Source: Corynebacterium sp. (GTDB taxonomy: Bacteria; Actinomycetota; Actinomycetes; Mycobacteriales; Mycobacteriaceae). Taken from it: a DNA stretch of 64,000 nt. A program made the position numbers and the translations under genes. Location of the stretch: the NCBI RefSeq assembly GCF_052107835.1, contig NZ_JBQEDF010000012.1:161-64160 (forward strand). The letters are read 5' to 3'. Position 1 is the first letter of the stretch, and every line of letters starts with the position of its first letter. Under the pieces are notes generated by a model that ran no database searches, was not told where the DNA came from, and saw only the letters and a program-made list of their open reading frames with translations. Of this stretch, positions 2,204 through 22,057 are shown piece by piece.

Positions 2204-2218
2204 AGGAGGTAGTTGAGA

Positions 2219-2497: not shown

Positions 2498-2499
2498 AG

Positions 2500-3617: not shown

Positions 3618-3620
3618 CCC

Positions 3621-4270: not shown

Positions 4271-4551
4271 TGAGCGAGGCAACTGTGAGCAACGAGAACA
4301 CCAAGGGCGCCCGCAAGGTCCGTTCCGGATACGTGGTGTCCGACAAGATGAGCAAGACCATCGTGGTTGAGCTCGAGGACCGTAAGAAGCACGCCCTCTA
4401 CGGCAAGATCATGCGCGCGAACTCCAAGGTGAAGGCGCACGACGAGGACGAGACCGCCGGCATCGGCGACCTGGTCCGTATCGAGGAGACCCGGCCGCTG
4501 TCCAAGGACAAGCACTTCCGGCTCGTCGAGATCATCGAGAAGGCCAAGTAG
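4270..4551 (+). CDS. rpsQ: 30S ribosomal protein S17
   Basis: 93 aa, ...[33 protein letters not shown]... Last gene of the S10 block. Confidence 0.96.
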
Positions 4552-4668: not shown

Positions 4669-6318
4669 TCACCTGGCCGACTGCTGGTCCCTCTTGCTGA
4701 TCTTGCCCACCCCGGTCAACGGGAACTCGTCGACGATGTCGATGGCATCCGGCACCGCGAAGCTCGCCAGGCCGTGGTCACGGGCGTACTTGCGCAGGGT
4801 GGTGTGGGTGAGACCGGCATCGGTGGATGACACGGAGCCCCGGGGGATGACGAACGCCCGGATCCTCTCGCCGAGCAGCTCGTCCTCCATCCCCACCACG
4901 GACACGTCGTGGACACCGGGGTGGGTCAGCAGGACATTCTCGACCGCCTCGGGGGCGATCTTCTCACCGCCGCGGTTGATCTGGTCCTTGGCCCGCCCCA
5001 CCACGGTCAGCGTCCCGCCGGTGAACACCACGATGTCGCCGGTGCGGTAGAAACCGTCGGAGGTGAAGGAACGTTCGTTCACCTCCGGCGCGCGGTGGTA
5101 CCGGCGGATCGTGTAGGGCCCGCGGGTCAGCAGGTGTCCCGGCTGCCCCTCCGGGACGTCACGGTCCGCGTCGTCGACGACGCGGATCTCGTCGTGGGGG
5201 CTCATCGGACGGCCCTGGGTGGAGACGATCTCCTCGATCGACGCGTCCAACGGCGTGTAGTTCACCAGCCCCTCGGCCATGCCGAAGACCTGCTGCAGGT
5301 TCCACCCCAGTTCGGGACGCACCCGTCTGGCCGCCGCCTCGGACAGTTTCGCCCCGCCCACCCACACGGTGCGCACTGCGGAGACGTCGTGGGCGTCGCG
5401 CTCCGGGGAGTTCAGCAGGCTGATCAGTGCCGGCGGTACCAGGGCGAGATGGGTCACCCGGTGACGTTCAATCAGGGGCAGGACCGTGGTGGGCATGGGG
5501 TCCGGGGCGAACACCATCGTGGCTCCGACCTGGACCGCGCCCAGTATCCCCGGCGAGCTCATCGTGAAGTTGTGGGACGCGGGCAGGGCGACGAGCAGGA
5601 CGTCGCCGTGTCCCAGGTCGCAGACGTCGATGGAGGCACGGACGGAGTAGAGGTAGTCGTCGTGGGTCTTCGGGATCTGCTTCGGTACCCCTGTCGTCCC
5701 ACCGGAGAGCTGGAGGAAGGCCAGTTCGTCCGCGCGAACCTCCGCGGGTTCGGGGGCGTCACCGGGCTCGGCGGAGCTCCAGGGATCAGCCGCCTGCTCG
5801 TCAACGAGGATCATCGAGACCGTCGGACCGTCCTCCAGCGGTGCGGTGAGATCCCTGTGGACCCGCTTCAGGTGCCGGTTCGGTCGTGCAGTGCTGAGGT
5901 AGAACGTGGCGGGGGCATGGGTCGCGAAGTGCCGGATCTCCTGGGAACCGTGCGCGGGCAGGGAGAACACCGGGATCGCACCCAGGCGCCAGACGGCGAA
6001 GACCGCCTCCAGGTAGGCCACGGCGTTGGGCATCTGGACGATCACGCCGTCCCCGCGTGAGATTCCCGCCCGCGACAGGACGGTGGATGCCCGGGTCACG
6101 CCCTCGTCCAGTTCCCCCCAGGTCACGGTCCGGGACGCGTCGGTGGCGGCGGTGTCGTCCGTCCACGTGTCCGCGGCCCGCCGGAACAGCTGCCAGTGGG
6201 TGTCGCCGTTCCATACACCGAGGTCGCGGTAGTGTTCCGCGGCCTCGGCGGGTACGCCGGTGGCGAGCACTCCGGTGCGGGGCTCCGGGCCGGTGGAGAT
6301 GTCGGGGAGGGTGGTCAT
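4669..6318 (-). CDS. Aryl-acid (2,3-dihydroxybenzoate/salicylate)-AMP ligase, DhbE/EntE/MbtA family
   Basis: FLQLSGGTTGVPKQIPKTHDDYLYS (A3), HNFTMSSPG, YRTGDIV, GGEKIAPEAVE and GKISKRD (A10) are typical of stand-alone aryl-adenylating enzymes. The start MTTLPD at 6318 forms an ATGA overlap with the NRPS stop; the ORF-track start 6456 is an over-extension. Confidence 0.88.
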   Translation of the reverse strand: MTTLPDISTGPEPRTGVLATGVPAEAAEHYRDLGVWNGDTHWQLFRRAADTWTDDTAATDASRTVTWGELDEGVTRASTVLSRAGISRGDGVIVQMPNAVAYLEAVFAVWRLGAIPVFSLPAHGSQEIRHFATHAPATFYLSTARPNRHLKRVHRDLTAPLEDGPTVSMILVDEQAADPWSSAEPGDAPEPAEVRADELAFLQLSGGTTGVPKQIPKTHDDYLYSVRASIDVCDLGHGDVLLVALPASHNFTMSSPGILGAVQVGATMVFAPDPMPTTVLPLIERHRVTHLALVPPALISLLNSPERDAHDVSAVRTVWVGGAKLSEAAARRVRPELGWNLQQVFGMAEGLVNYTPLDASIEEIVSTQGRPMSPHDEIRVVDDADRDVPEGQPGHLLTRGPYTIRRYHRAPEVNERSFTSDGFYRTGDIVVFTGGTLTVVGRAKDQINRGGEKIAPEAVENVLLTHPGVHDVSVVGMEDELLGERIRAFVIPRGSVSSTDAGLTHTTLRKYARDHGLASFAVPDAIDIVDEFPLTGVGKISKRDQQSAR

Positions 6319-9300
6319 GTCAGTGGCTCCAGATCTGCGGTGAGGGCGTCGGAGATGAACGGTGTGATCCGGTCCCATCCGTCCGGGGTGACCAGGCCGG
6401 AGTGGGTCGTGTCGAGGGTGAGGTGGGCCGGGGTGCGGCCGAGGGCCCCCGTCCAAGCGGGAACGGGGTCCCAGACGGCGGGCGCGGCAGTGCCGGATGC
6501 GGCGCGGGAGGCGGTGACGACCTGGACGTCGCCGGTGAATCCGGTGAGGTCCACCGGGGACGCGGACTGCAGCAGGGAGTCGCAGAATTCCAGGTTGGCC
6601 CTGAGGGTCTCCGTCCCCCCGTCGCCGTCTGACGTGCCGGGCATCCCGGCGATGTCGGCGAGCTGCGCGGGGGTGGCTCCGTCCGTGGACGCGGGGCGCG
6701 CCGGACCCGTCCCCGCCGGGTAGGCGTCGATGATGCCGAGGTAGGCGACCTGCTCCCCGCGCCGGAGGAGCTCGGCGGTCATGGCCTGGGCGACCGTGCC
6801 ACCGAAGGAGTACCCGAGGAGACGGTAAGGGCCGTGGCCACGCGCCTGCTGGATCACGTCGACGTAGGACGCCGCCAGCCCGGCCAGGGACGAGACGCCG
6901 GGGAGCGGGTCCGGCAGCTGGAGGCCGGTGACCGGGATGCCCGGACCGCCCTTCGCCGTGTCCAACCGGTCGGCGAGACCGCGGAAGGGCAGTGCCAGAC
7001 CACCGCCGGGGTGGATGCAGAACAACGGTGCCCCGGCCCCCGGGGCCAGCGGCAGGACCTGCCGGGTGCCACCGCCGCCGAGCCGGCCGGCGAGGGCGGC
7101 CGGGGATCCGGTCTCGACGATGTCCTGGATGGTGACCTTCTCCAGCCCCGCCCGCCGCAGCCGGCCGAGCAGGCGCATGGCCAGCAGGGAGTGCCCGCCG
7201 ATGTCGAAGAAGTTGTCGTGGGCACCGACCGTGTCGGTCCCCAGGAGGGTGGCCATGGCTTCGGCGATGGTGGCGGTGGCGTCCGCGTCACCGGCCGGTT
7301 CGGCACCGGGGACGGTGTCCCCGTCGGGCTCCGGGACAGCGTCCCCGCGGGTCGGCCCGTCGGTCGGCTCCCACGGTCCGGGCAGGCTGTTGAGCAGGGC
7401 GCCGGTGCTGATCCGCGTGTCGGCCACAACGGTCGACAGGACCTGCGCCAGGGTGCGGTGGGCGAGGTCCACGAACCGGGCGTCCACCAGGTCGGGGCGG
7501 TGGGCGAGGACGATCCGCAGCGTCGGACCCGGCGGAGCGACCACGGAGAGCGGGAAGTCGGTCATCCCGTCCGCGTGCACCCCGGCCACGGTGATGGTGT
7601 CAGGGCTGGTATCCGTCGCCGTCCCGTCCGGCTCCCCGGGGACACCCGGGAAGTTGTCGTGGACCACCAGGGAGTCGAAGAGCTGCCCGTGCCCGGCGAG
7701 CCGTTCGATGCGCACCAGCGGGGTGGACTCGTGGGCGGTCATCCCCGCCTGGGTCCGGCCCACGGTGCGCAGCAGTCCGGCGAGGGAGTCGGCGGGGTCG
7801 AGGGTCACCCGGGCAGGGAGGGTGTTGATGAACAGGCCCACGGTGTTGCTGATCCCCGGCAGTTCGGTGGGCCTGCCGGACACCGTGGTGCCGAACACCA
7901 CGTCCCGCGAGCCGGTGAGGGATGCCAGGGTGAGCGCCCACGCCGCCTGGAGCAGAGTGTTCGGGGTGACACCGGCGGCGGACGCCCGGTCCAGCAGGGC
8001 GGCCGGGGTGAGTGTGCCCGAGGTGACCTCGTGGAGAGTCTCGCCGGTGACGGTGCCCGCGCGGTCCCGGTCCGCGTCGGTCGGTGGGGCGATCCCCCGG
8101 ATGAGGGTGCCGCCGGTCAGACCGTTGAGCCGGGCGGACCAGGCGTCCTCGTCGGCGCGGGTGTCCCGGGACCCCAGCCAGTCGAGGTAGTCGGCGTAGG
8201 GTGCGGCCTCCGGAAGTGCCCGGCCGTGGTAGACGGCGAGCAGGTCGTGCACCATGACGGGGGTCGACCAGCCGTCCGTGACCAGGTGGTGGTTCCCCAG
8301 GGTCAGGCGTGCCGCCGACCCGGGCAGGAGGACGAGTTCCGCGGCGACGAGGGGCCCGTACCCCAGGTCGATGCGACGGCCGGCCATGGTGCGCAGCAGG
8401 TCGTCGGCGGCGGAGGTGGCCGCGTCGCCGGGGAGACCGCGCAGGTCCACGGTCCGCCACGGCAGGTCGACGTCCCGCGGGACGAGCTGGACGGGGGAGG
8501 GGAGTGTGGAGGTGTCGAAGCGGGCGCGCAGCAGGGGGTGGCGTTCGAGCACCTGCAGGAGGGCGGAGCGCAGGCGTCCGGGGTCGACGGTGCCGCGCAG
8601 GTCGATCCCGGCGGCCAGGACGTAGCCGTCGCCGCCACTCTCCGCGTGGAACAGCAGTCCCTCCTGCAGCGGCGACACCGGGAGGACGTCGGACAGGGGG
8701 CCGTGGACGCTCTCCCATGCGTTGATGGTTGCCTGGTCAACATCCGGGACGTGGGTGAGGTCGCTGGGGCTGGCGCCGCCGGGTGATGTCCGGGCCAGGA
8801 CGGCCAGTGCGGTGAAGGCGGGGGTGAAGGACTCGGCCGGGAAGTCCGGGGAGGTGCTGTGGAACCCGCCCGCGTCGGCATCGACGAGCAGGAGCGGGGT
8901 CGGCAGCGTCCCACCCCGCAGCGTCATGGCCGTCCGCCCGGTGGCCACGGTCACCGCGGGTGGTGTGACGGTGTCTCCGGCCGGGGAGCGCAGGTGTTCC
9001 TTGGCGTGGAGCAGGGACTGACGCGCCCGCTGTGCCGGGGTTCCCTGGCCAGCCGGGAGGGCGGGGATGATCCGCGATCCACCGGGGGCGTCCGACAGTG
9101 CCACCGGGCCGTCGACGTTCAGCAGTGCCGCGGCAGCGGCGATCTCCTCCGGTGTCACGGTGAAGAGTGTGGGGAGGTCGCCGAAGATGGCGTCCGCGTC
9201 CGGGATTCCCGCAACGTCCGGGGGTGTGACGGGCTCCCCGTGGAGGGCACGGGCCAGCCCGTCCAGGATGTCCCCGGCGGCCACCGGGTCGAGGACCGCG

Positions 9301-12300
9301 GTGTCGACCGCCACCCGGACCCGGGTCGTCCCTTCGGCGGCGTTGTCCGGGATGTCATCCCGCACGATCCCCAGTGACCAGGGCACCCCGGCCGCCGGGT
9401 CGATCAGACTGAGGAGGTCGTCGTCGCCGGTGACCGTGCCGGCGGCCGCGCGCCCGGCGGGCACCGGGGGAACGCGCGGGACGATGAGCCGGGGGCCGTC
9501 CGGTGCGCCGGCGTCGAGCACGGCGCGCAGGACGCCGTGTGCCGCCATCATGGTCGCCGCCGCCTCCGCGAGAACATCACGCAGCTGGTCCGGTGCACCG
9601 TCCACGGAGATCTCGCCGACGAGGGCGGGGCGGGGTGCGTCACGGAAGGACGACGGCAGCGCAACCGTTCCGGAGTGGATGGTGTCAGTGGGTGTGCGGT
9701 CCTCCGCGGTTCCGTCGTCGCGGGTACCGCCCCCGTCCGGCGCCACTGCACCGGCGGAGGATGCGACATGGCGCAGCTCGGTCCCGGTGAGCAGGTCACC
9801 GGCCTGGACAGCCACCCCGTCGCGGCGCAGGCGTCCGGCGACGGTCAGGGCACCGATGCTGTCGCCGCCCAGGGCGATGAAGTCACGGTCCAGGGCCACG
9901 GCCTCCGGACCGGTGCCCAGCACCCCGGCCACGGCGTCCACCAGGGCCCGCTCGGTGTCGGTCAGGTCTGCTGCGGACGGGTCGTCGGCGCTGTCCCGCC
10001 CGTCCTGCTGCGGCCCGTCGTCCTCCGACGCCTGCAGGGCGCGCCGGTCTATCTTGCCGCCGATGGTTAAGGGGAGCCGGTCGTGCACCCGGACGCGTGT
10101 GGGGACCAGGTGGCCGGGAACCCGGTCGGCGAGCGCGGCGCGGACATCGAACGACGGTTCCGTGGCCGCAGCCTCCGGTGACAGGGTCACGTGGGCGATC
10201 AGCTTGAGTGCCCCCGGCGTCCCGAAGGTGCCCACCGCGGCACCGGTGACCTGCGGAAGTCCCTGCAGGGCGGCCTCGACTTCCCCGGGCTCCACGCGGT
10301 GGCCGCGGATCTCCAGCTGGTCGTCCGCACGCCCCAGGAAGTGGTGGGCGCCGCCGCGCGGCCCGGGAACCCAGCGCACCAGGTCCCCGGTCCGGTAGCG
10401 GCGGCTGCCCGCGGACGTGCTGAACACGTCCGCGGTCTGCTCCTCCAGCCCGCGGTAGCCGAGCGCGATCTGCGGCCCGGACAGGTGGAGCTCCCCGGTC
10501 TCGTTGTCCGGAGCGACCTCCCCGTCGACATCGAGGATCTCGGCGGTCATGCCGGGGACGGGGTGTCCGATGATGACCGGGCCGGGGACGACGGCCGCGG
10601 CCAGCGCATCCACCGTCGCCTCCGTCGGGCCGTAGACGTTCCATGCCGCCAGTCCGGGACTGGCGGCGAGCCGGTCCCACAATGACTGCGGAATCGCCTC
10701 ACCACCGAGGATCACGGTGGACACGCCCGCCCCGTCCAGCACGCCGGACTCGATGAGCGCCCCGGCCAGCGAGGGGGTGGCGTCCAGCACGTCGATGCCG
10801 TCGGCGAGCAGTGCGGTGCGCATCAGCCCGGGATCACCGACCGTCCGCGCCGGGTAGAGGTGGACGGTGGCGCCGGTGAAGAGCCAGGACAGCTGGTCGA
10901 GCGCGGCGTCGAAGGAGAAGGACGCGGTGTGGGCCACGTGCAGCTCCCCCTCACACCGTGCTCTGGCCCAGGCGTCCGGGTACAGGGTGGTGCGGTGGCC
11001 GGCGAGCAGCGCCTCGACACTGGACCGGCTGATCTCCACCCCCTTCGGCTGCCCGGTCGTCCCGGAGGTGTACAGCAGGTAGGCCAGGTCGTCCTGAGCT
11101 CCGGTCACGTCGTCGGGGGATACACCGGTCGCGGTGATCCCGTCGGCGTCGAGGACCGCCGTGGCACCGGAGTCGGTGAGGATCCGGTCGCGCCGGGCCT
11201 TCGGGTGCCCGCGGTCGAGGATCACGAAGGCCCGGTGCGCACGCCACACCGCGAGGACGGCGACGGCAAGATCCGTGCCCTTCGGCAGGTCGAGGGCGAT
11301 CACGTCGCCGTCCCCGGAGGACGCGGTGATCCGTCGGGCCGTCCGGGTGATCCGTTGCTGCAGGTCGGTGGCGGGGAGGAACCCGTCGTCGTCGACGAGC
11401 CCGCCGGCGGCGCCGTGGCCGCCGATACCGTCGATGAGCCCGTCGAGACCGGGGACGGTGTCCGGCAGCGGGGCGCCGGCGCGCTCGGCGGACGCGGCGG
11501 CGACGAATGCTGGATCGCGCAGCCGGATGTCCTTCAGCGGGCCGTCGGCGAAGAGCAGCGTCCGGATGTCCCGGAGCCGCTGGGTGGCGGTGTTGGTGTC
11601 CACGCTGTCCGGATCGGTCTCGAAGGCGAGGTCGATGCCTCCGTCCACCGTCGGGGTGACGACGAGGACCAGGTCCTCCGGCGGACCGCCGGCGATGTTG
11701 CGCAGTACCCCGGGTGTGCCGTGGAAGTCGAGGGAGAAGTCGAAGGTCTTCAGGTTCAGGCCGATGCCGTGCAGCACGGCCGGGCCGGCGAGTTCCCCCG
11801 CCAGGTCGCGGACCAGGTCACTGCCGGGGTAGCGCTGGTGGGTGCGGATGTCGTCCAGTGCAGCGTGGGCGGTCCGGGCGACGTCGGGGACCGAGGCGTC
11901 GGCCCGGACGTCGAAACGCAGGGGCTGCATGTTGACCAGCATGGCCGGGGTGCGGCGCAGCGGGCCGGACGTGCGGGCCATCATCGGCATGGCGATCAGG
12001 GCCTCGTCGACGGCGTGGCCCATCTTGCGCAGCCAGGCCCCGTAGGCGCCGAGGACCAGGTCCGACCAGACCAGGCCGTGGGCCTCGGCCCGGTCACGCA
12101 ACCCCGACATCTCCACGGGGTCCATCCGCAGGGTGGTGGTGATGCTTGCGGTCCCCGCACCGTGGACCAGGTCCTCCCGGCCGGTGGTGTCCGGTGCGGG
12201 GGTCATCCGGTCCCTGAAGAACTCCCGGTCGGAGCGGTAGGCGTCGCCGGAGCGGTAGGTGAGGTCGGCGTCCACGATCTCGGCGACGGGGGCGAACCTC

Positions 12301-12839
12301 GGGGGACGCGCTGTCCGCCCTCCGGCGAGTTCCGTGAAGTGCGCGGCTGTACGGCGGGTCAGCAGGGCGGCGCTGTACCCGTCGACGATGAGGTGGTGGT
12401 ACAGCTGTATGCACCACACGGCGCTGCCCAGGTCGAGGATCAGGAAGCGGTGCAGTGGCCCGCCGGTCATGGTGCGCCACCGTTCACCGCACTCCGCCTT
12501 CTCCGCGTCGATGATGGCGGACGCCAGGACGTACGGGTCCGGCACCGTCCCCGGGTCGGAGATGTCGCGGATCTCCGGTCGTGCGGCGGGGGAGGGGTCC
12601 ACGTACTGGGCGGGTTCGCCGTCACCGGTGAAGCGCAGCCGCAGCGTCTCGGACTCGTCCACCGTGCGGCGTACCGCCTCCGCCAGCAGTGCCGTGTCCA
12701 CCGGCGCGAGTTCGAGAACCTCCCCGACCACGTAGTACGGCGAGGTGGGGTCCAGTTTCTGCGCGTTCCAGATCCCCCGTTGGGCGGCGGTCAGCGGCAG
12801 ACGCTGCGGTGGTACCTCGGAGGAGGGGGAGTCGGTCAC
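6315..12839 (-). CDS. Non-ribosomal peptide synthetase, domain order C-A-T-X(degenerate C/E-like)-C-T-TE
   Basis: Residue numbers refer to the 2198-aa ORF opening at TTG 12911. Motifs: HHLIVDGYS (172), LAYLLYTSGTTGQPKG (609), GGKIDRRAL (951), FIALGGDSIG (Ser1018), HHLVTDGWS (1541), FFDIGGHSLL (Ser1908), GYSFGG (Ser2035). There is no A domain between the second C and the second T. GTG 12839, preceded by the SD AAGGA 8 nt upstream, is the more plausible start and leaves a 96-bp divergent promoter gap. Confidence 0.92.
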   Translation of the reverse strand: MTDSPSSEVPPQRLPLTAAQRGIWNAQKLDPTSPYYVVGEVLELAPVDTALLAEAVRRTVDESETLRLRFTGDGEPAQYVDPSPAARPEIRDISDPGTVPDPYVLASAIIDAEKAECGERWRTMTGGPLHRFLILDLGSAVWCIQLYHHLIVDGYSAALLTRRTAAHFTELAGGRTARPPRFAPVAEIVDADLTYRSGDAYRSDREFFRDRMTPAPDTTGREDLVHGAGTASITTTLRMDPVEMSGLRDRAEAHGLVWSDLVLGAYGAWLRKMGHAVDEALIAMPMMARTSGPLRRTPAMLVNMQPLRFDVRADASVPDVARTAHAALDDIRTHQRYPGSDLVRDLAGELAGPAVLHGIGLNLKTFDFSLDFHGTPGVLRNIAGGPPEDLVLVVTPTVDGGIDLAFETDPDSVDTNTATQRLRDIRTLLFADGPLKDIRLRDPAFVAAASAERAGAPLPDTVPGLDGLIDGIGGHGAAGGLVDDDGFLPATDLQQRITRTARRITASSGDGDVIALDLPKGTDLAVAVLAVWRAHRAFVILDRGHPKARRDRILTDSGATAVLDADGITATGVSPDDVTGAQDDLAYLLYTSGTTGQPKGVEISRSSVEALLAGHRTTLYPDAWARARCEGELHVAHTASFSFDAALDQLSWLFTGATVHLYPARTVGDPGLMRTALLADGIDVLDATPSLAGALIESGVLDGAGVSTVILGGEAIPQSLWDRLAASPGLAAWNVYGPTEATVDALAAAVVPGPVIIGHPVPGMTAEILDVDGEVAPDNETGELHLSGPQIALGYRGLEEQTADVFSTSAGSRRYRTGDLVRWVPGPRGGAHHFLGRADDQLEIRGHRVEPGEVEAALQGLPQVTGAAVGTFGTPGALKLIAHVTLSPEAAATEPSFDVRAALADRVPGHLVPTRVRVHDRLPLTIGGKIDRRALQASEDDGPQQDGRDSADDPSAADLTDTERALVDAVAGVLGTGPEAVALDRDFIALGGDSIGALTVAGRLRRDGVAVQAGDLLTGTELRHVASSAGAVAPDGGGTRDDGTAEDRTPTDTIHSGTVALPSSFRDAPRPALVGEISVDGAPDQLRDVLAEAAATMMAAHGVLRAVLDAGAPDGPRLIVPRVPPVPAGRAAAGTVTGDDDLLSLIDPAAGVPWSLGIVRDDIPDNAAEGTTRVRVAVDTAVLDPVAAGDILDGLARALHGEPVTPPDVAGIPDADAIFGDLPTLFTVTPEEIAAAAALLNVDGPVALSDAPGGSRIIPALPAGQGTPAQRARQSLLHAKEHLRSPAGDTVTPPAVTVATGRTAMTLRGGTLPTPLLLVDADAGGFHSTSPDFPAESFTPAFTALAVLARTSPGGASPSDLTHVPDVDQATINAWESVHGPLSDVLPVSPLQEGLLFHAESGGDGYVLAAGIDLRGTVDPGRLRSALLQVLERHPLLRARFDTSTLPSPVQLVPRDVDLPWRTVDLRGLPGDAATSAADDLLRTMAGRRIDLGYGPLVAAELVLLPGSAARLTLGNHHLVTDGWSTPVMVHDLLAVYHGRALPEAAPYADYLDWLGSRDTRADEDAWSARLNGLTGGTLIRGIAPPTDADRDRAGTVTGETLHEVTSGTLTPAALLDRASAAGVTPNTLLQAAWALTLASLTGSRDVVFGTTVSGRPTELPGISNTVGLFINTLPARVTLDPADSLAGLLRTVGRTQAGMTAHESTPLVRIERLAGHGQLFDSLVVHDNFPGVPGEPDGTATDTSPDTITVAGVHADGMTDFPLSVVAPPGPTLRIVLAHRPDLVDARFVDLAHRTLAQVLSTVVADTRISTGALLNSLPGPWEPTDGPTRGDAVPEPDGDTVPGAEPAGDADATATIAEAMATLLGTDTVGAHDNFFDIGGHSLLAMRLLGRLRRAGLEKVTIQDIVETGSPAALAGRLGGGGTRQVLPLAPGAGAPLFCIHPGGGLALPFRGLADRLDTAKGGPGIPVTGLQLPDPLPGVSSLAGLAASYVDVIQQARGHGPYRLLGYSFGGTVAQAMTAELLRRGEQVAYLGIIDAYPAGTGPARPASTDGATPAQLADIAGMPGTSDGDGGTETLRANLEFCDSLLQSASPVDLTGFTGDVQVVTASRAASGTAAPAVWDPVPAWTGALGRTPAHLTLDTTHSGLVTPDGWDRITPFISDALTADLEPLT

Positions 12840-12935
12840 GGGGGGAGTCCTTTCGGAAGGTGTGGAGAGGCTTACTTCATTCCCGGAGGATGGTAGAGTC
12901 CGCACGGTCAATCACGAACGAACACGGAGCAGGGA

Positions 12936-13199
12936 GTGGAGTTGTCGGGAACAGTGGACGGTGTGGATGTGGACGGCACGATGGGGAAACTGACCGCGCG
13001 GGTGGCGGATCTGCTGGGCTGCGGGGTAGGGGACCTCGATCCGGACGAGGAGCTCATGGACCAGGGACTGGACTCCGTCCGGCTCGTGGAGCTCGTGTCC
13101 CTCCTGCGTGCGGAGGGTTTCCACGCGGACTTCGCCGATCTGGCGGAGGAGAGTTCCCTCTCCGCGTGGCGTGAGCTGCTCACCGACCTGGCGTCATAG
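12936..13199 (+). CDS. Free-standing (aryl) carrier protein, phosphopantetheine-binding
   Basis: 87 aa with DQGLDSVRLVELV (a GLDS-type Ser attachment site). GTG 12936 follows the SD GGAG; ATG 12981 is an alternative start. Divergent from the NRPS. Its stop abuts the stop of the convergent A-domain gene. Confidence 0.8.
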   Translation: MELSGTVDGVDVDGTMGKLTARVADLLGCGVGDLDPDEELMDQGLDSVRLVELVSLLRAEGFHADFADLAEESSLSAWRELLTDLAS

Positions 13200-14876
13200 G
13201 CCCGCCACCAGGGCCTTGCGGTCGAGCTTTCCGTTCGGGCTGAACGGGAGGGCGTCGATGACGGTGAACCGGGACGGCACCATGTACTCCGGGACAGTCT
13301 CGGCGAGCCCCGCCGCCAGCTGCGTGGCGTCGGGGGCGGTCGTGTCCTCCGCGACGATGAAGGCCACCAGCTCCGCTGTCCCGTCCGGCCCGTCGACGGC
13401 GACCGTGGCCGCCTGGCGGACCCCGGGGAGTTCGCGCAGCCGGGCCTCGACCTCGCCGAGCTCCACCCGGTTGCCGCGGATCTTCACCTGGTCGCCGATG
13501 CGTCCCAGGAACCGCAGGAGGCGTTCGCCGTTGACCTCGGTCCAGGCGACGATGTCGCCGGTGCGGTACATGCGGCCGCCGTCTGTCCCGGGTTCCGGGG
13601 AGGGGACGAAGACCTCCGCGGTGAGGTCGGGGCGGGCGAAGTAGCCGGTGCCGACCTGTGGTCCGGAGATGCACAGCTCACCGGGGGTGTCCCAGGAGTC
13701 CCCGGCGGGGTCGACCTCGGTCCCGTCCTCCCGGAACACGTACACGCCGACATTGTCCTCCGGCAGCCCCAGGAGGCTGGCGTGGTCGTCGAAGTCGGGG
13801 GAGGTCACGAGGTCGTCGGTGTACTCGACCCAGGTGACGTCCATCGCGGTCTCGGTGGGGCCGTAGAGGCCGTGGACGCGGCAGCCGATCCCCTCACGTG
13901 CACGCTTCACCACGTCACCCGGCACGGCTTCCCCGCCGAGAATCAGGTGGCGGAGAGGCGACAGTGCGGTCAGTGGCGTCCCGAGGTCGTCCAGGACGTC
14001 GAACAGGACGCGGAGCAGGGACGGCACCATGGACAGGACGGTGACGTTGTGCCGGCCGACCATGTCGACCAGGGCATCGACGTCACCTGGCCACCAGTCC
14101 GGCGGAGGCACGACGACGGTGCCGCCGGTGGCGAGCGGGCCCAGCAGTTCGGCCACGCCGACATCGAAACTGACCGGCGCCTTCTGCAGCATGCGGATGC
14201 CCGCGGAACCGGTGGCCGGTGCATCCCCGGCGAGGACACGTCCCATCCACTGGAAGTGCGCGGTGACACCGATGTGCGTGTTCAACGCACCCTTGGGCGT
14301 CCCGGTCGTGCCGGAGGTGTAGATCAGGTAGCAGGGGTCGTCCGGTGTGACGGGACGGGACTGCTCGGCCGCGGTGAAGGGACGGTGCTCCGCGGCAAGG
14401 AACCCACGGCCCAGCGGGGAGTCGTCGGTGACGGTGCCGGTGGGAAGACCGCTCTCCGTGAATCCCCGTGGCAGCGACGCCCCGCCGAGTGCGAACGCGG
14501 CCGCCGGCGCGCAGTCGTCGAGGATGAAGGCGACCCGTTCGGCGGGGTAGGACGCGTCGACCGGGACGTACACCGCACCGGCCCGGATGATGCCGGACGC
14601 GACGACCGGCAGCCAGCCGCACCGGTTGGCCAGGACAACCACCCGGTCACCGGTGCCCACACCAATCGCCCGGAGGTGACGGGCCACCGCGGAGGAACGC
14701 CGGTCGAGGTCCGCGAAGGTCACGGGTCCGCCGTCGCCGGCCACGGCGGGACTGTCGGGGTGTTCCGCGGCGGACCGCAGGAGGAGTTCGTCGAGGGTTG
14801 CCGGCTCGACCGGGGTGGCGGGGCCGAAGCGCAGGTCACCGGCGCGTCCGGCGAACGCCGGGAGTGTGCTTGTCAC
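13194..14876 (-). CDS. Stand-alone NRPS adenylation domain protein (no carrier domain)
   Basis: 560 aa with LIYTSGTTGTPKGA, YGPTETAMDVT, YRTGDIV, KIRGNRVELGEVE and NGKLDRKAL; it ends 10 aa after A10. The GTG start at 14876 gives a GTGA overlap with the upstream monooxygenase stop. The 912-aa ORF-track entry is an out-of-context extension. Confidence 0.88.
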   Translation of the reverse strand: MTSTLPAFAGRAGDLRFGPATPVEPATLDELLLRSAAEHPDSPAVAGDGGPVTFADLDRRSSAVARHLRAIGVGTGDRVVVLANRCGWLPVVASGIIRAGAVYVPVDASYPAERVAFILDDCAPAAAFALGGASLPRGFTESGLPTGTVTDDSPLGRGFLAAEHRPFTAAEQSRPVTPDDPCYLIYTSGTTGTPKGALNTHIGVTAHFQWMGRVLAGDAPATGSAGIRMLQKAPVSFDVGVAELLGPLATGGTVVVPPPDWWPGDVDALVDMVGRHNVTVLSMVPSLLRVLFDVLDDLGTPLTALSPLRHLILGGEAVPGDVVKRAREGIGCRVHGLYGPTETAMDVTWVEYTDDLVTSPDFDDHASLLGLPEDNVGVYVFREDGTEVDPAGDSWDTPGELCISGPQVGTGYFARPDLTAEVFVPSPEPGTDGGRMYRTGDIVAWTEVNGERLLRFLGRIGDQVKIRGNRVELGEVEARLRELPGVRQAATVAVDGPDGTAELVAFIVAEDTTAPDATQLAAGLAETVPEYMVPSRFTVIDALPFSPNGKLDRKALVAGL

Positions 14877-16222
14877 TGGAGGATCCTTTCGTCGGTGGTG
14901 GACGGCTGGCGCAGCGATTCCGGGGCGGGGGCGCACCCGGCCCCGAGCCCGGCGAGGACGCGGTCGGAGAGTTCCCCGAGACAGCTGAGGTTCGCCAGGC
15001 CAGGTCCCTGGCGGAGGCCGGAGAGGGTGGGGAGGAACAACGTCGGGTCCATGCCCTCGAGGGCGAGGTCGGCGCCGATCCCGGCCTCCACGGCCTGGCT
15101 GGTCACCTGACCCGAACAGGCGCTGATCAGCCGGGCGACGGTGCGGTCGTCCATCATGCGGGTGAACCACAGTGGGGAGTTGCCGCGGGCGTCGACGACC
15201 ATGTCGAAGACCTCGGTCCGTCCGTCGTCGGTGTGCACGGCGGCGAGGCCGTTGTGGTCGGTGACGCCGGTGACCCGGCCGCGCAGGTGGTTGACCCGGT
15301 CCTCGCCCTTCAGCCGTGCCTGCACCTGGGCGGAGAAGACACCGCGGTCGCAACAGGCGATGACCTCGCGGCGGTCGGCGTCGTCCAGCGTCGTCCACAG
15401 GGTGGGGTCGGTGTAGAGCCCGTTCTCGAAAGCGCCCTCGGCGCGGGTGAAGATGGTGGCCAGCGGGGAGATCACCGCCAGGTCGACGACGTCGTGGTTG
15501 ACGACCTCCTCCACGATGCTCGCGGCCGTCTCGCCGCCGCCGATCACCGCGACGCGGGAGGCGGTCGGCAGACGTCCCGAGGAGACCGCCTGCCAGAACC
15601 CCGCCACCGAGAACACCGTGGGCAGCGGCGCGATCCGGCGGTCGGAGCGTCCCGGGCCGGTCAGCATCAGCGCGTCGGCCTCGATGCGGGTGGTCGAGCC
15701 GTCGAGACGGCCGACGGTCAGGGACCACCCGTCGGCACCGTCGTCTCCGGCCACCCGCGCGGCGCCCGGGTTGCGCAGACCGATGCGGTTGACCTGGCCG
15801 GGGACCAGATGCATCCCGGTACGGGCCGCGGCCCAACGCAGGTACTCGGCCCACAGGTAGTGGCGGGGACTGGGGTGGTCGTTGTCGACCCACCAGGCGT
15901 AGCGGCCGGTGTCGACCAGGAAGCCCGTCCACCCGGACGCGAGCAGTTCACGGTCGACCGCGCTGTTGGCGTCGGTGCCGGGCGGCCCGGCAATGCGGGT
16001 GCGGTAGGGGAAGCCGACGTCTTTGGTGGGGGACGTGCCGAGTCGGTGCCGGCCGTCGGTCCATCCGCCACCGGACCGCCAGTTCCCGCCGATGCCCTGG
16101 TAGTCGACGACGGTGATGCTGGGGGCGGGCAGGCCGAGGGAACGCAGGGCGGCCGCCTTGGCGTTCACGGCGACCGCCTTGGGCCCGGCGCCGAGGATGA
16201 GGAGAGAGGGGGGAATCTGCAC
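14873..16222 (-). CDS. FAD-dependent amine N-hydroxylase, MbtG / lysine N6-monooxygenase-like
   Basis: 449 aa. The N-terminal LLILGAGPKAVAVNAKAAAL dinucleotide fold and GGNWRSGGGWTDGRHRLGTSPTKDVGFPYRT resemble MbtG-type lysine N-oxygenases as I recall them. Operon context with the A domain. Confidence 0.72.
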   Translation of the reverse strand: MQIPPSLLILGAGPKAVAVNAKAAALRSLGLPAPSITVVDYQGIGGNWRSGGGWTDGRHRLGTSPTKDVGFPYRTRIAGPPGTDANSAVDRELLASGWTGFLVDTGRYAWWVDNDHPSPRHYLWAEYLRWAAARTGMHLVPGQVNRIGLRNPGAARVAGDDGADGWSLTVGRLDGSTTRIEADALMLTGPGRSDRRIAPLPTVFSVAGFWQAVSSGRLPTASRVAVIGGGETAASIVEEVVNHDVVDLAVISPLATIFTRAEGAFENGLYTDPTLWTTLDDADRREVIACCDRGVFSAQVQARLKGEDRVNHLRGRVTGVTDHNGLAAVHTDDGRTEVFDMVVDARGNSPLWFTRMMDDRTVARLISACSGQVTSQAVEAGIGADLALEGMDPTLFLPTLSGLRQGPGLANLSCLGELSDRVLAGLGAGCAPAPESLRQPSTTDERILQ

Positions 16223-16269
16223 GGTGAGGGGTGCTCCTGGTCAGTTGTCCTGTGGTCCACTGGGCAGGC

Positions 16270-16302
16270 TACCCTGATTCGTGACCCCTGATCAAAGGGT
16301 AG
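16270..16302. promoter_or_regulatory. Dyad-symmetry element in the divergent promoter region between the N-hydroxylase and acyltransferase genes
   Basis: CTACCCTGAT-N12-ATCAAAGGGTAG. The overlapping 19-mers at 16259-16277 and 16294-16312 match the DtxR consensus TTAGGTTAGCCTAACCTAA at only 12/19 and 11/19. Confidence 0.3.
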
Positions 16303-16354
16303 GGTGTCTTTAGAATCAAATGTGCAGTACGACCAGTGGGAGAGGACCAAGACT

Positions 16355-17041
16355 GTGACCGAGAACATTGCCGCCGCGCCGATCGACCTGAGCGTCCTGC
16401 ACCGGCTGCGGACCGATGTGGGGCCGGACGGACGACTGCCGGATGCCCCGCCGGTTCCCGCGGTCTACCGGACCCCCGGTGAGGGCATCAGCCTCCGGGT
16501 CGCCGACCCGTCGGAGGACTCGCAGGACCCCGGGAAGGTCGCCGACTGGATGGGCCGTCCGCACCTGGTGGAGACCTGGGAGCAGGACTGGAGCGCGCAG
16601 ACGTGGGCCGCCGACTGGCGGGCGAAACTGTCCACGACCTACTCCCTGCCACTGATCCTGGGCTACGGGGAGGACGAGGTCGGCTACATGGAGATCTACC
16701 GGCCGCACCGCGACGAGATCGGGCTGGTCTACGGCTCCGAGCCGCATGACCTGGGCTTCCATGTGGCGGTCGGGGAGGAGTCGTTGACCGGTCGGGGGAT
16801 CTTCAGCCCATTCCTCGGTGACATGGCCCGGAACCTGCTGGAGGCAGACCCGGACTGCCATCTCGTGCTCGTGGAGCCGTCTTCGACGAACCACCGCGTG
16901 CACCGCGTCCTGCGCCGGGGTGGTGGCGTGGACGCCGGCGAGCGCCAGCAGAGGGCGGACCGGAGGGTCAGGCTGTTCTACTGGGCGGACGGGACGGTCG
17001 ACCCGGCCGACCGCCTGCTCAGTGCTCCTGTTGACGACTGA
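16355..17041 (+). CDS. Siderophore N-acyltransferase, GNAT fold, IucB/MbtK-like
   Basis: DWMGRPHLVETWEQDW...LILGYGEDEVGYMEIYRPHRDEIG...HDLGFHVAVGE is the hydroxylysine/hydroxyornithine acyltransferase signature. GTG 16355 follows the SD GGGAGAGGA. The 17 codons from the ORF-track start 16304 have AT-rich third positions, atypical for this genome. Confidence 0.8.
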   Translation: MTENIAAAPIDLSVLHRLRTDVGPDGRLPDAPPVPAVYRTPGEGISLRVADPSEDSQDPGKVADWMGRPHLVETWEQDWSAQTWAADWRAKLSTTYSLPLILGYGEDEVGYMEIYRPHRDEIGLVYGSEPHDLGFHVAVGEESLTGRGIFSPFLGDMARNLLEADPDCHLVLVEPSSTNHRVHRVLRRGGGVDAGERQQRADRRVRLFYWADGTVDPADRLLSAPVDD

Positions 17042-17079
17042 CCGCGACGAAGTGTAGCGCCCGTGCTACACCGTGCGTC

Positions 17080-17370
17080 ATGAGCGCCCCCGATCCTCAT
17101 GCCCCTGGCATTGAGTCCCTCTCGCAGCGTGAACTGCGCAATGATTCCGGGCGTGTCCTCCGCTCGGTGAATCAGGGGGAGTCCTTCGTCCTGACCAACA
17201 GTGGCGTGCCGGTCGGGAAGATCGTCCCGCTTGATACCCCTGTATCTGGGCTGCGGATCGCACGTCCGGCGAAGCGCCGCGGTGGATGGTCGGCACTGGG
17301 AATCCGCCGGAAGTCCGTCCCGGCGGGTCTGCCGGGTATCCTCGACGATCTCCGGGGCGACCGGCTGTGA
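17080..17370 (+). CDS. Type II antitoxin, Phd/YefM (VapB-like) family
   Basis: 96 aa. ...LSQRELRNDSGRVLRSVNQGESFVLTNSGVPVGKIVPL... is the typical antitoxin N-terminal fold. GTGA overlap with the downstream PIN gene. Confidence 0.7.
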   Translation: MSAPDPHAPGIESLSQRELRNDSGRVLRSVNQGESFVLTNSGVPVGKIVPLDTPVSGLRIARPAKRRGGWSALGIRRKSVPAGLPGILDDLRGDRL

Positions 17371-17636
17371 CAGTCGCGCAGACAGTCTACGTCGACACCT
17401 CCGCTGCCGGAGTGCTACTGATTGACCGGCCCGAGAGTGGAGCGCTGCTGGACTGGCTGGACCGTTCCGTGTTCCGGAGCGCGGGACTACTGCCGATGAG
17501 GTCTCTGCGCACCCTCGATGCCCTGCACCTTGAGGCCGCTCTACGCCTGGACGCCGCGGCCCTTCTCACCTACGACCACAGGCTGGGTGAGGCCGCCCGT
17601 GCCGTGGGGCTGGACGTGATCGCGCCGGGAACCTGA
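17367..17636 (+). CDS. PIN-domain (VapC-like) toxin, abnormally short (89 aa), probably internally deleted
   Basis: VYVDTSAAGVLL (first acidic PIN residue), then LRTLDALHLEAA and LTYDHRLGEAARAVGLDV (C-terminal PIN motifs). About 35-40 aa between them, including the conserved Glu segment, appear to be missing. Confidence 0.6.
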   Translation: MTVAQTVYVDTSAAGVLLIDRPESGALLDWLDRSVFRSAGLLPMRSLRTLDALHLEAALRLDAAALLTYDHRLGEAARAVGLDVIAPGT

Positions 17637-17660
17637 ACCGGTGCCGGCGTGTGGGGGCGG

Positions 17661-18965
17661 TCAGTCGCGCACTGGGGTGATCAGTCGTGCGGTCACGCCG
17701 CTGCCGACCCGGCCGGATCGCCCTCCCGTGGCCTTCGGGTCGGTGACTCCGGGCAGGAGGACCAGCGTGGAGCCGCCGGGGTGCCCGTCCTGCAGCCGCT
17801 TCGCCACGGCGAAACCGTTGACCTCGGGAAGGTGGGTCAGGTCCACTGTGCGGTCCGCGATGATGTGGTCCACCGTCCCGAACAGGTTGCGTGCCTGTGC
17901 GGGGACGGGACGCTGCGGGGTCTGTGCGGTGCCGTCAACGATGCCGGCGTCGGTCAGCCGTGCCAGTGCAGCCAGGCTGATCAGTGCCTGCTCCAGCCAG
18001 CGCCACAGCAGCACCCCGTCCGCCCCGCCCCGCTCGTCGACGACCGACACCCGGGCGAGTGCCTGTGTCCCCAGGATCACGTGGGGCACCCCGTCCACCG
18101 GACGCACCGGGCCGGTCACCGAGATCTTCGCCTCACTGACCTCCACGGTGGCGTCCGGTTCGACCGTGTCCCGTTCGGCGTCCACGGAGGCGTCCAGGAG
18201 CGAGGCGGTGGCGTCCACGATGTCCCTGACCACCGGGGCACCGGTCAGGAGCTCGGATTCCGTGGCGCCGGTATGCGGCACGGAGGCGGAGAACTGCTGG
18301 TCGAGGCGTCCCACCGTCCGTCGTTCCGGGGCGGTGCGGGCACGCAGCGCCACCGTGTCAATGGGGTGTCCCGCCGCGGCGCGCGCGATGACCACCGCGG
18401 CGGCGAGGATCTCCTGGTGCCCGACACCGAGCTGTGGGGGGAGCACATCCAGCAGTGCCTCCGCGTCGCTGACATCGAAGGTCTTGTAGGTCGCCGGACC
18501 GCCACCGTCGATGGCGGCGGGCGGGACGTCGGCGGCGAGCCACGGCCAGGAACCGACGGGCCCCACGCTGCCTCCCGACAGCAGTGTCCTGACGTCCCCG
18601 ATGACCGTGGCCCACGATGCCGCGTCCACCACGCCACGGTGCACACAGACCAGGATGCGGGTGGGTGAGAGGTAGCTGACGCGCCACACCAGGCCCGCCT
18701 CCGGATCCATCGAGGCCGCCAGGACGCCGGGACCGGACCTCTCTTCCGCGATCACGTCGTCCGCGGTGACCAACGGTTCCTCCGGGACGCGCACCGTGGT
18801 CCCGGCGACCACCGCCCGCAGAGCCCCGTGGGATGCCATCATCGCCGAGACCGTCCGCCGCAGCGTGGCGTCCGGCACCGGCTCGTCCGCGTCGATTGCC
18901 CCCCAAAGGGCGGCGGACGGCGGCACGGGGGACGCGGTGAACTCGGTGGCGGTGGAAGGGGACAT
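17661..18965 (-). CDS. Free-standing condensation/epimerization-like protein with a degenerate active site (VHRGVVDAASW instead of HHxxxDG)
   Basis: 434 aa. Its N-terminal part (LRRTVSAMMASHGALRAVV...) is paralogous to the X region of the NRPS (LAEAAATMMAAHGVLRAVL...). The DxxSW motif is retained, but the second (catalytic) His is Arg. Confidence 0.7.
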   Translation of the reverse strand: MSPSTATEFTASPVPPSAALWGAIDADEPVPDATLRRTVSAMMASHGALRAVVAGTTVRVPEEPLVTADDVIAEERSGPGVLAASMDPEAGLVWRVSYLSPTRILVCVHRGVVDAASWATVIGDVRTLLSGGSVGPVGSWPWLAADVPPAAIDGGGPATYKTFDVSDAEALLDVLPPQLGVGHQEILAAAVVIARAAAGHPIDTVALRARTAPERRTVGRLDQQFSASVPHTGATESELLTGAPVVRDIVDATASLLDASVDAERDTVEPDATVEVSEAKISVTGPVRPVDGVPHVILGTQALARVSVVDERGGADGVLLWRWLEQALISLAALARLTDAGIVDGTAQTPQRPVPAQARNLFGTVDHIIADRTVDLTHLPEVNGFAVAKRLQDGHPGGSTLVLLPGVTDPKATGGRSGRVGSGVTARLITPVRD

Positions 18966-19000: not shown

Positions 19001-19921
19001 ATGGCTACGAACAGCTGGACCGACAAGGACATCCCCGACCAGTCCGGCAGGACCGCCGTCGTCACCGGGGCCAACAGCGGCCTCGGTTTCGAGACGTCCC
19101 GGGCACTGGCGTCCAGGGGTGCGCACGTTGTCCTGGCCGTGCGCTCCACCGACAACGGTGAGGACGCGGCCGACCGGATCAGGCATTCGGTGCCGGACGC
19201 CGAACTGACCGTCCAGCAGCTGGACCTGGCCTCGCTCGACTCGGTGCGCGAGGCGGCAGATGTGCTGAAGCAGACCTTTCCCGCGATTGACCTGCTGGTC
19301 AACAATGCCGGGGTGATGTACCCGCCGAAGCTGGAGACCGCCGAGGGGTTCGAGCTGCAGTTCGGTGTGAACCACCTCGGCACGTTCGCCTTCACCGGTC
19401 AACTGCTCGACAACGTGCTGACGGTCCCGGACTCGAGGATCGTCACCGTGTCCAGTGTGGCGCACCAGATGCGCGCCGAGATCCACTTTGATGACCTGCA
19501 GTGGGAGCGTTCCTTCGACACGGTGGCCGCCTACGGCCAGTCCAAGCTGTCGAACCTCCTGTTCGCCTACGAACTCCAGCACCGTCTGAAGGCCGCGGGC
19601 GCGGACGCCATCTCGGTGGCCGCGCACCCCGGGGTCTCCGACACGGCATTGTTCCGCTACCTTCCCGGACCGGTGCAGAAGGTGTGGCCGGCGGTGCGTC
19701 CAGTTGTCTCCCAGCCCGCGGCGAAGGGGGCGCTGCCGTCACTGCGTGCGGCCACCGACCCGGACGTCTTCGGCGGGCAGTACTTCGGTCCCCGGGGTCC
19801 CGGAGGCTTCCGGGGTGCCCCGGTGGTGGTGTCCTCCACCGAACAGACCCATGACCGGGACCTGCAGCGGCGCCTGTGGGACGTCTCCGGGGAACTGACC
19901 GGGGTAACCTTCCCGGTCTGA
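19001..19921 (+). CDS. Short-chain dehydrogenase/reductase (SDR), retinol-dehydrogenase-like subgroup
   Basis: 306 aa with TAVVTGANSGLGFETSRALASRGAHVVLAVR (TGxxxGxG), NNAG, and Y..SK in AAYGQSKLSN. Confidence 0.85.
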   Translation: MATNSWTDKDIPDQSGRTAVVTGANSGLGFETSRALASRGAHVVLAVRSTDNGEDAADRIRHSVPDAELTVQQLDLASLDSVREAADVLKQTFPAIDLLVNNAGVMYPPKLETAEGFELQFGVNHLGTFAFTGQLLDNVLTVPDSRIVTVSSVAHQMRAEIHFDDLQWERSFDTVAAYGQSKLSNLLFAYELQHRLKAAGADAISVAAHPGVSDTALFRYLPGPVQKVWPAVRPVVSQPAAKGALPSLRAATDPDVFGGQYFGPRGPGGFRGAPVVVSSTEQTHDRDLQRRLWDVSGELTGVTFPV

Positions 19922-22050: not shown

Positions 22051-22057
22051 ACGGTGA

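Follow-up and report, generated by a model that had tools for sequence, protein, structure and literature searches.

The 64,000-nucleotide stretch of Corynebacterium DNA analysed here (contig NZ_JBQEDF010000012.1, positions 161 to 64,160; hereafter the window) carries at 4669-18965 a nonribosomal peptide synthetase (NRPS) gene cluster that is likely to be iron-regulated and to make a mixed catecholate-hydroxamate siderophore. The product is most likely a previously undescribed dihydroxybenzoyl dipeptide with an N-hydroxylysine-type group. A preliminary description of this DNA had listed seven parts for the cluster: an aryl-AMP ligase, a free carrier protein, a synthetase, a carrier-less adenylation (A) domain, an N-hydroxylase, an N-acyltransferase and a free protein resembling condensation (C) or epimerisation (E) domains. 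All seven are present (Table 1), their genes are intact, and the assignments hold against Pfam, NCBIfam, the PDB and Foldseek; parts were assigned by Pfam and NCBIfam scans of open reading frames (ORFs), sequence matches to the PDB, AlphaFold modelling followed by Foldseek, and HHalign. The siderophore reading of that description is supported by the enzyme set, by genes for a siderophore-interacting reductase (SIP) and an Fe-siderophore importer elsewhere in the window, and by palindromes of DtxR-like type that the two divergent promoters share with those of other species.

Composition of the cluster and the predicted pathway

In the proposed pathway, the ligase would adenylate 2,3-dihydroxybenzoate (DHB), presumably made elsewhere in the genome, and load it onto the free aryl carrier protein (ArCP). 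The in-cis A domain (A1) would activate residue 1 (Lys, Orn or Arg), which would be held on the first carrier (T1), and C1 would move DHB onto it. C2 would then join DHB-residue 1 to residue 2 on the second carrier (T2) which, having no A domain of its own, would be loaded in trans by the stand-alone A domain (A2). Residue 2 would be N6-hydroxylysine, from which the MbtK-like acyltransferase would make an N6-acyl-N6-hydroxylysine hydroxamate, either before or after loading. The thioesterase (TE) would free the product hydrolytically, or possibly through lactam formation or oligomerisation, and the ferric complex would be imported and reduced by the products of the FecCD, ATPase and SIP genes at 42-46 kb. 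Our inferences concern the identity of the two residues, the stages at which hydroxylation and acylation occur, the stereochemistry, how the product is released and control by DtxR.

The synthetase had been described as a 2175-residue protein that starts directly with a C domain and reads C-A-T-X-C-T-TE. Pfam recovers this order (C, A, PP, C, PP, TE), with a silent stretch of ∼345 residues between T1 and C2 where X lies and no A domain between C2, which ends at residue 1832, and T2, which starts at residue 1881. We set the length at 2174 residues: the longest ORF reaches 12911, while the start at 12839 shows a conserved GAAAGGA-N-GTG (ribosome-binding site and GTG codon) and agrees with gene calls on contigs of the same species. 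Catalytic motifs are present in C1, C2, A1, A2, T1, T2 and TE, and the order of domains fits the suggested logic of an aryl starter followed by one residue selected in cis and one in trans. Third-codon GC is high (0.85-0.91) where computed, the ligase, ArCP and stand-alone A ORFs not passing the GC3/GC2 filter. A minus-strand ORF at 12908-13183 that overlaps the carrier gene was rejected, having no Pfam match; the plus-strand PP-binding reading is the one kept in the orthologues.

We predict 2,3-DHB as the aryl cap. The ligase gene, whose start overlaps the NRPS stop by 4 bp, has as its best NCBIfam model the DHB-AMP ligase TIGR02275 (559 bits, under the equivalog cutoff of 723), PRK10946 being also among the best models, and its best PDB matches are the DHB-AMP ligases 6e8o (521 bits) and DhbE (502 bits). 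Two residues (S240 and V329, DhbE numbering) reportedly separate DHB from salicylate enzymes. The window ligase has the pocket motifs HNFTMSSPG and GLVNYT, which DhbE and 6e8o share; the corresponding motifs of the salicylate ligase 5wm2 are ALACPG and GLLNYT. These DHB-type pocket residues lead to the predicted cap, and salicylate was rejected on the same grounds. The catecholate half of the earlier 'catecholate or phenolate' alternative is thus retained and the phenolate half dropped. The partners of the ligase fit an aryl-capped NRPS pathway: the ArCP resembles that of EntB and is 65-74% identical across orthologous loci, and module 1 as a whole has its highest scores against MxcG (482 bits) and EntF (473 bits), although these lie far under the whole-protein cutoffs.

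The hydroxamate is suggested by the remaining two enzymes. The hydroxylase is a flavin monooxygenase ∼50% identical to NbtG/MbtG proteins of Nocardia, and the acyltransferase, for which an alternative upstream start exists at 16304, matches the MbtK structures 9nnq (E 8e-28) and 1yk3 (E 4e-27). Their genes are divergent, like nbtG and nbtH of Nocardia farcinica. Loci of the C. variabile group (L010, 8478-9896; L011, 8488-9860) have two tandem mbtK-like genes against the one in the window, and the same loci are without the free X paralogue described below.

Table 1. Cluster parts, putative operators and probable uptake genes, in window coordinates
Feature	Position	Strand	Assignment and remarks
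2,3-Dihydroxybenzoate-AMP ligase (EntE/DhbE type)	4669-6318	-	AMP-binding and AMP-binding_C
NRPS, 2174 aa	6315-12839	-	C1-A1-T1-X-C2-T2-TE (Pfam)
TE, thioesterase domain	6318-7028	-	GYSFGG
T2, carrier of the A-less module	7080-7271	-	IGGHSL; PP-binding
C2, D-donor (DCL) type condensation domain	7416-8690	-	NHHLVTDGWS
X, degenerate epimerisation/condensation-like domain, ∼342 aa	8697-9722	-	No Pfam match; VDTAVLDP at the HHxxxDG position
T1, carrier	9762-9959	-	LGGDSI; PP-binding; boundaries estimated from motif
A1, in-cis adenylation domain	10053-11369	-	Code DADDIGVVDK
C1, aryl-accepting starter-type condensation domain	11472-12806	-	YHHLIVDGYS; EntF/MxcG-like
DtxR-like box, divergent NRPS/ArCP promoter	12861-12879		TGTGGAGAGGCTTACTTCA
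Free ArCP, 87 aa	12936-13199	+	Pfam PP-binding, E 5.9e-11; EntB-ArCP-like GLDSVR
Stand-alone A domain, 560 aa	13194-14876	-	No carrier, ends at A10 motif; code DVASIGLMDK
L-lysine N6-monooxygenase (NbtG/MbtG family)	14873-16222	-	PDB 4D7E (NbtG), 435 bits, E 2e-129, near full length
Two DtxR-like palindromes, divergent mbtG/mbtK promoter	16260-16308		CTGGGCAGGCTACCCTGA; ACCCCTGATCAAAGGGTAGGGTG
N6-hydroxylysine N-acyltransferase (MbtK/IucB family)	16355-17041	+	Pfam Acetyltransf_8, 119 bits
Free-standing X paralogue, 434 aa	17661-18965	-	No Pfam match; condensation fold; VHRGVVDAASW
Probable cognate uptake genes	42171-46106	-	SIP and Fe-siderophore ABC importer
SIP reductase	42171-43055	-	
FecE/FepC-type ATPase fusion	43052-44917	-	
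FecCD permease	45012-46106	-	

Substrate pockets and the degenerate X domain

Pocket codes were read by alignment to GrsA-PheA, for which the control returned DAWTIAAICK. The A1 code DADDIGVVDK, previously extracted by eye, is reproduced by this alignment, and it is identical in nine of the ten close sequences, with DADDVGVVDK at locus L007 and DADDLGMVDK in C. kroppenstedtii (eleven sequences in all, the window and ten loci). Within the code family of Gln and Glu, residue 239 is Lys for Glu and Gln for Gln. The Asp found at 239 in A1, together with Asp278 and Asp331, would by charge complementarity favour a cationic side chain (Orn, Lys or Arg).

The stand-alone A domain shares the code DV(A/G)S(I/L)GLMDK with all of its checked stand-alone homologues, even those only 43-45% identical. 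Its gene overlaps the hydroxylase gene by 4 bp in the window and overlaps or directly follows the mbtG-like gene in every relative (nine orthologous loci, C. kroppenstedtii and C. meridianum). Since the A gene is always coupled to the lysine N6-hydroxylase gene, residue 2 is predicted to be N6-hydroxylysine or its N-acyl form. In C. meridianum the stand-alone A domain is the only candidate loader of a lysine derivative, the other nearby A domain reading DVWHISLIDK, which we take to be a serine-type code. The codes DADDIGVVDK and DVASIGLMDK, and partial strings of them, gave no relevant match in full-text literature searches. Orthology of these A domains with those of the Mbt/Nbt type was rejected, the code of the nocobactin NRPS NbtD being unrelated.

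C2 is of the type that accepts a D-configured donor. Its best PDB matches are to C domains situated behind E domains (PvdL C3, 197 bits; McyB, 186; BacC, 160; SrfA-C, 155; TycB1, 130), other types reaching 105 bits or less. Such a domain placed after X suggests that the synthetase descends from a C-A-T-E-C(DCL) layout. X and the free protein have the E-domain fold and remote homology to E domains, and in no orthologue does X retain the two catalytic residues, namely the second His of HHxxxDG and Glu in EGHGRE. The in-line HHxxxDG position reads VHRSVLDP in the C. variabile group and VHSAVVDA in C. kroppenstedtii; the free copy reads (H/Y)RGVVDA there, and LRARGR where E domains have LEGHGRE. 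Judged by these sequence features, X is a decayed epimerisation domain without canonical catalytic residues. In all comparisons it ranks last among the NRPS domains in conservation (39% between two species groups, against 57-75% for the others). Since the degeneracy of X extends to every orthologue, the distant one of C. kroppenstedtii among them, this is an old and stable state, not recent decay.

The free protein shares 30% identity with X over 139 residues, and an HHalign comparison of the in-line X alignment with the free-protein family (probability 99.8%, E 9.5e-30, 316 columns) identifies it as a paralogue of X. The family is small, with 17 clusters at 90% identity, each of them from Corynebacterium and carrying the annotation 'hypothetical', and an exhaustive search of representatives with the free protein returned one full-length 50%-identity cluster and two short fragments. 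Its AlphaFold model (pLDDT 71) matches condensation-superfamily structures in Foldseek (probability 1.0, E ∼1e-10, TM ∼0.45), including CmnI, CDA-C1, E domains and the glycopeptide X-domain (4tx2, 6m7l). By sequence, the only solved structures that it matches, weakly, are epimerisation domains, and its profile matches internal segments of long NRPSs. The last ∼90 residues, a Gly-rich tail, are almost invariant and have no counterpart in X.

The C/E-like reading given earlier to this free protein holds; its place in the cluster is less certain. The gene adjoins the cluster only in the window and three other loci, and a copy is present in just 4 of 9 neighbouring loci; near the cluster of C. variabile, C. 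neomassiliense and others it is absent. In Ca. C. avicola (L019, 8001-9371) it lies away from the NRPS genes, as the first gene of a block of sulfur genes and divergent from an MFS transporter gene. This patchy occurrence, with absence from about half of the orthologous clusters and displacement in one species, makes membership of the pathway uncertain.

Glycopeptide X-domains (HRxxxDD) recruit Oxy P450s, and 'interface' domains occur in β-hydroxylating siderophore NRPSs; both are condensation-like and non-catalytic. X and its free paralogue are similar to the glycopeptide X-domain in having a C/E fold without the catalytic His (HRGVVDA in the free copy) and in belonging to a cluster that needs several trans-acting enzymes. 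They differ in that their nearest sequence relatives are E domains, in that X lies between T1 and C2 instead of in a terminal module, and in the existence of a free-standing paralogue. One could imagine, though we think it improbable, that the dead E-like domain and its paralogue are not relics and serve as a recruitment or 'interface' platform that docks the trans-acting A domain, the hydroxylase and/or the acyltransferase on carrier-bound intermediates, or else that the pair performs a non-canonical epimerisation, which would account for the DCL type of C2. In species with the free copy even the HR remnant is lost from the in-line X, and under the platform idea function could in some species have moved from the in-line to the diffusible copy.

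Conservation, regulation and genomic setting

Three proteins of the window (the free protein, the hydroxylase and the A domain without a carrier) have homologues that place the host in Corynebacterium. When species-representative genomes were scanned once with the hydroxylase as query, nine loci came back, those of C. variabile, C. kalidii, C. neomassiliense, Corynebacterium sp. USCH3, Ca. C. faecigallinarum, Ca. C. avicola and three others. The gene order mbtK-like, mbtG-like, A, ArCP, NRPS, aryl ligase is kept in all nine, and the proteins are 55-78% identical. Gene order and protein identity show the core cluster to be shared by at least nine species and not unique to the source genome. A distant version, 42-47% identical, occupies the same gap between the ribosomal protein genes rpsQ and rplN in C. 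kroppenstedtii, and C. meridianum has in that gap a reduced set (mbtG, A, T-TE and SIP), with a separate ArCP and a C-A(Ser)-T-TE synthetase beside mbtG, A and T-TE.

The putative operators in the two divergent promoters are similarly conserved. The DtxR/IdeR reference operator is a 19-bp palindrome of the TTAGGTTAGCCTAACCTAA type that overlaps the promoter. The core TAAGCCTC(T/A)CCA of the NRPS/ArCP box is kept in all nine orthologous intergenic regions, and the cores GGGTAGCCT(A/G)CCC and CCTA(C/T)CCTTTGAT(C/A)AGG of the mbtG/mbtK promoter are kept across nine species; the palindromes thus persist across species whose proteins share only 55-75% identity. Four of the seven weak DtxR matches in the window are intergenic and lie by iron-related genes (NRPS/ArCP, mbtG/mbtK, upstream of the FecCD permease, and at 48666). 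It is the location of the sites and their conservation across species that make the case for DtxR, and they support an iron-dependent repression of the cluster that we propose from sequence.

The DNA of the window is GC-rich (GC 0.64-0.74). The gene rpsQ (4270-4551) lies directly upstream of the cluster region, and positions 1-4270 are presumably the ribosomal S10 operon, given their place ahead of rpsQ and the layout of loci L017 and L018. A 44-kb island fills the rpsQ-rplN gap (window 4552-48977), its cargo being the siderophore cluster, sulfur-acquisition genes, transporters and iron-uptake genes. That the same gap holds the orthologous cluster in C. kroppenstedtii and the reduced one in C. 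meridianum suggests an old, conserved insertion site. Orthologues of the uptake genes, 76-83% identical, lie ∼3 kb from the cluster in C. kalidii (L012); no gene for a siderophore-binding lipoprotein was found beside the FecCD permease of the window.

Further genes of the island accompany the cluster. Between the mbtK-like gene and the free X gene are a Phd/YefM antitoxin gene (17080-17370) and a PIN/VapC toxin gene (17367-17636); the pair is missing from all nine orthologous loci, which indicates a species-specific toxin-antitoxin insertion within the cluster. The regions 19940-27166 and 28893-31165 hold SfnG/SfnB-type, luciferase-like, flavin-reductase and styrene-monooxygenase-like genes and an NMT1-type binding protein. 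With an SfnG match of 563 bits and an SfnB-like gene, this block is a sulfur-acquisition set, syntenic with the siderophore cluster in most relatives and probably functionally unrelated to it. Its flavin reductase, luciferase-like and acyl-CoA-dehydrogenase-like members were considered as MbtN-like acyl suppliers and rejected, being sulfur-acquisition genes of the SfnG/SfnB type.

Immediately upstream of the SIP gene, at 37142-42174, are two very large ABC-2-type membrane proteins of 939 and 738 residues (DUF3533/ABC2_membrane_3), possible exporter candidates whose position is kept in Ca. C. avicola (L019). The gene-poor, lower-GC region 46157-48906 contains ORFs without a Pfam match, perhaps some pseudogene remnants, and DtxR-like palindromes at 46157 (CGAGGATAGGTTCACCTTA) and 48666 (AAAGGTGAGCCTCACCTGC). 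At 50656-54417, beside genes for MFS transporters and the molybdenum cofactor, a protein of 1253 residues joins a molybdopterin oxidoreductase (Fe4S4, Molybdopterin, Molydop_binding) to flavodoxin, FAD_binding_1 and NAD_binding_1; it is probably an assimilatory nitrate-reductase fusion.

Alternative readings and relation to known systems

Several observations weigh against the catecholate-hydroxamate assignment, or against parts of it. The cationic nature of residue 1 is argued from charge logic and from a modest similarity of A1 to the A domain of ε-poly-lysine synthetase (184 bits, among the better PDB matches), and the A1 code agrees at eight of ten positions with DAQDLGVVDK, which we take to be the classical Gln code. 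For the C. kroppenstedtii orthologue antiSMASH reportedly calls Gln (PMC13244258). The stand-alone A code matches no code that we recognise and is unlike that of NbtD (DALHPGHVCK), which leaves gene linkage to carry the hydroxylysine assignment. C2 expects a D-configured donor, yet an active epimerase is not evident. As to regulation, a plain DtxR consensus scan of the window shows no enrichment (7 matches against 9.4 expected), with no match of five or fewer mismatches inside the cluster and the best sites in the window having 6-7. No paper characterising the product, and no chemistry or expression for any orthologous cluster, was found in the literature.

Precursor supply points in the same direction. 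As noted in the preliminary description, genes for DHB synthesis (isochorismate synthase, isochorismatase, DHB dehydrogenase) and for a phosphopantetheinyl transferase are absent from the window ORFs scanned, the Pfam scan covering all but those in 1-4270, ∼31165-31272 and 62558-62878, and no MbtH-like gene was found in the 64-kb window, a six-frame motif search included. A short-chain dehydrogenase at 19001-19921 was considered as EntA/DhbA and rejected, being of the PRK06197 type. A gene for a DhbA-type 2,3-dihydro-DHB dehydrogenase (TIGR04316, 280 bits) does lie inside the C. kroppenstedtii cluster, and C. variabile is reported to have entA-entC1-entB-fes at a separate locus (PMC3219685).

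These absences, together with the loss of catalytic motifs from X, its rank as the fastest-evolving NRPS domain and the Phd/PIN insertion found in the source species only, could be taken to mean that the cluster is decaying or silent. We consider this very improbable, given seven intact genes, the full complement of motifs in C1, C2, A1, A2, T1, T2 and TE, orthologues 55-78% identical in at least nine species and conserved promoter elements.

A different product is a more serious alternative. A catechol with two hydroxamates is the usual hexadentate set, and it is possible, if unlikely, that the cluster makes such a minimal mycobactin-like compound (DHB, N6-acyl-N6-OH-Lys, cyclo-N6-OH-Lys), in which A1 would load Lys to be hydroxylated and acylated on T1, the trans-acting A domain would load N6-hydroxylysine and the TE would cyclise it to an N-hydroxy-caprolactam. 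The divergent NbtG-type and MbtK-type genes, arranged exactly as nbtG and nbtH, would suit this scheme, as would the acidic A1 pocket, which is compatible with Lys, and the match of A1 to the ε-poly-lysine synthetase domain; MbtK substrates have also been predicted to remain bound to MbtE/F (PMC4376628). However, the cluster has no Cy domain, polyketide synthase (PKS) or salicylate machinery, its A-domain codes are unlike that of NbtD, the A1 evidence does not tell Lys from Orn or Arg, and lactamisation by the TE is an assumption. Comparison with mycobactin and nocobactin clusters gives a similar picture: the hydroxylase (MbtG/NbtG type), the acyltransferase (MbtK/NbtH type) and their divergence are shared, whereas salicylate synthase, salicyl-AMP ligase, MbtH, the MbtL/M/N acyl-supply genes and, within the window, any PKS gene are lacking, and both C domains have the canonical HHxxxDG, not the Cy motif.

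Chrysobactin (CbsF) and vanchrobactin (VabF) are built from DHB, D-Lys or D-Arg, and Ser on C-A-T-E-C-A-T-TE synthetases. The present cluster resembles these in its DHB-AMP ligase, ArCP, starter C domain of the EntF/MxcG type, acid-lined first pocket, E-position domain, DCL-type C domain and terminal T-TE. It differs in that no orthologue keeps the HH and Glu catalytic residues in the E-position domain, module 2 is A-less and loaded in trans, the ArCP is free-standing and not fused to an isochorismatase, and a lysine N6-hydroxylase and an N-acyltransferase are present, so that a hydroxamate is expected. A pure catecholate dipeptide of this kind (DHB, D-Lys or D-Arg, and a second residue), possibly oligomerised by the TE, with hydroxylase and acyltransferase serving a separate hydroxamate or a facultative modification, seems to us improbable. 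In its favour are the C-A-T-(E-like)-C(DCL)-T-TE backbone, which is the CbsF/VabF layout with A2 in trans, the closeness of module 1 to MxcG and EntF, and the separate ArCP and C-A(Ser)-T-TE synthetase of C. meridianum, which shows that the two halves can be distinct units. Against it, mbtG, mbtK and the trans-acting A gene are syntenic with the NRPS in nine close relatives and C. kroppenstedtii, and T2 has no other possible loader in the cluster.

The overall ligand set of the proposed product resembles that of heterobactin of Rhodococcus erythropolis, which consists of DHB, D-Orn, Gly and cyclic N-hydroxy-Orn. Both would be catecholate-hydroxamates made by the NRPS of an actinobacterium, in which DHB caps a basic residue, probably D-configured, and the C-terminus is an N-hydroxy diamino acid. 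The likeness is drawn to the described structure, not to htb sequences, and is limited by a hydroxylase of the lysine type (NbtG family) and not the ornithine type, by two modules in place of three, and by the presence of an acyltransferase. As to the 'mycobactin/heterobactin-like' label given earlier, the cluster is not of the mycobactin type, with no salicylate machinery, Cy domain, PKS or MbtH. With X read as a decayed E domain, the backbone is nearer chrysobactin, vanchrobactin and heterobactin than mycobactin, and in logic it comes closest to the chrysobactin and vanchrobactin synthetases, while the tailoring pair is of the mycobactin/nocobactin family. A likeness to heterobactin has been suggested for the C. 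kroppenstedtii orthologue as well (PMC13244258). The earlier remark that no other cluster architecture matched this one agrees with published antiSMASH results on orthologues, the best match of the C. variabile cluster being madurastatin at 23% (PMC12096840) and the authors reporting 'no hitherto known siderophore pathway' for that of C. kroppenstedtii (PMC13244258).

The cluster family is known from genome papers and uncharacterised. It combines familiar parts into a variation on well-known chemistry, is not a new kind of system and leaves the general understanding of siderophore biosynthesis unchanged. The cluster is a plausible source of a new siderophore, and its synthetase is mildly unusual: one module has no A domain and is loaded in trans, and the DCL domain is preceded by a dead E domain, of which a free paralogue exists. 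The prediction of DHB, a cationic residue and an N-hydroxylysine-type hydroxamate is concrete and testable, and C. variabile DSM 44702 is a culturable carrier of the cluster. A DCL-type C domain that follows a dead E domain, and a free paralogue of the latter, amount to a small natural experiment on the role of non-catalytic condensation-fold domains in NRPSs. For the organisms themselves, the cluster would represent an undescribed siderophore of a clade that includes the cheese-rind species C. variabile, species of the animal gut and, more distantly, the skin-associated C. kroppenstedtii, in communities of a kind shaped by competition for iron.

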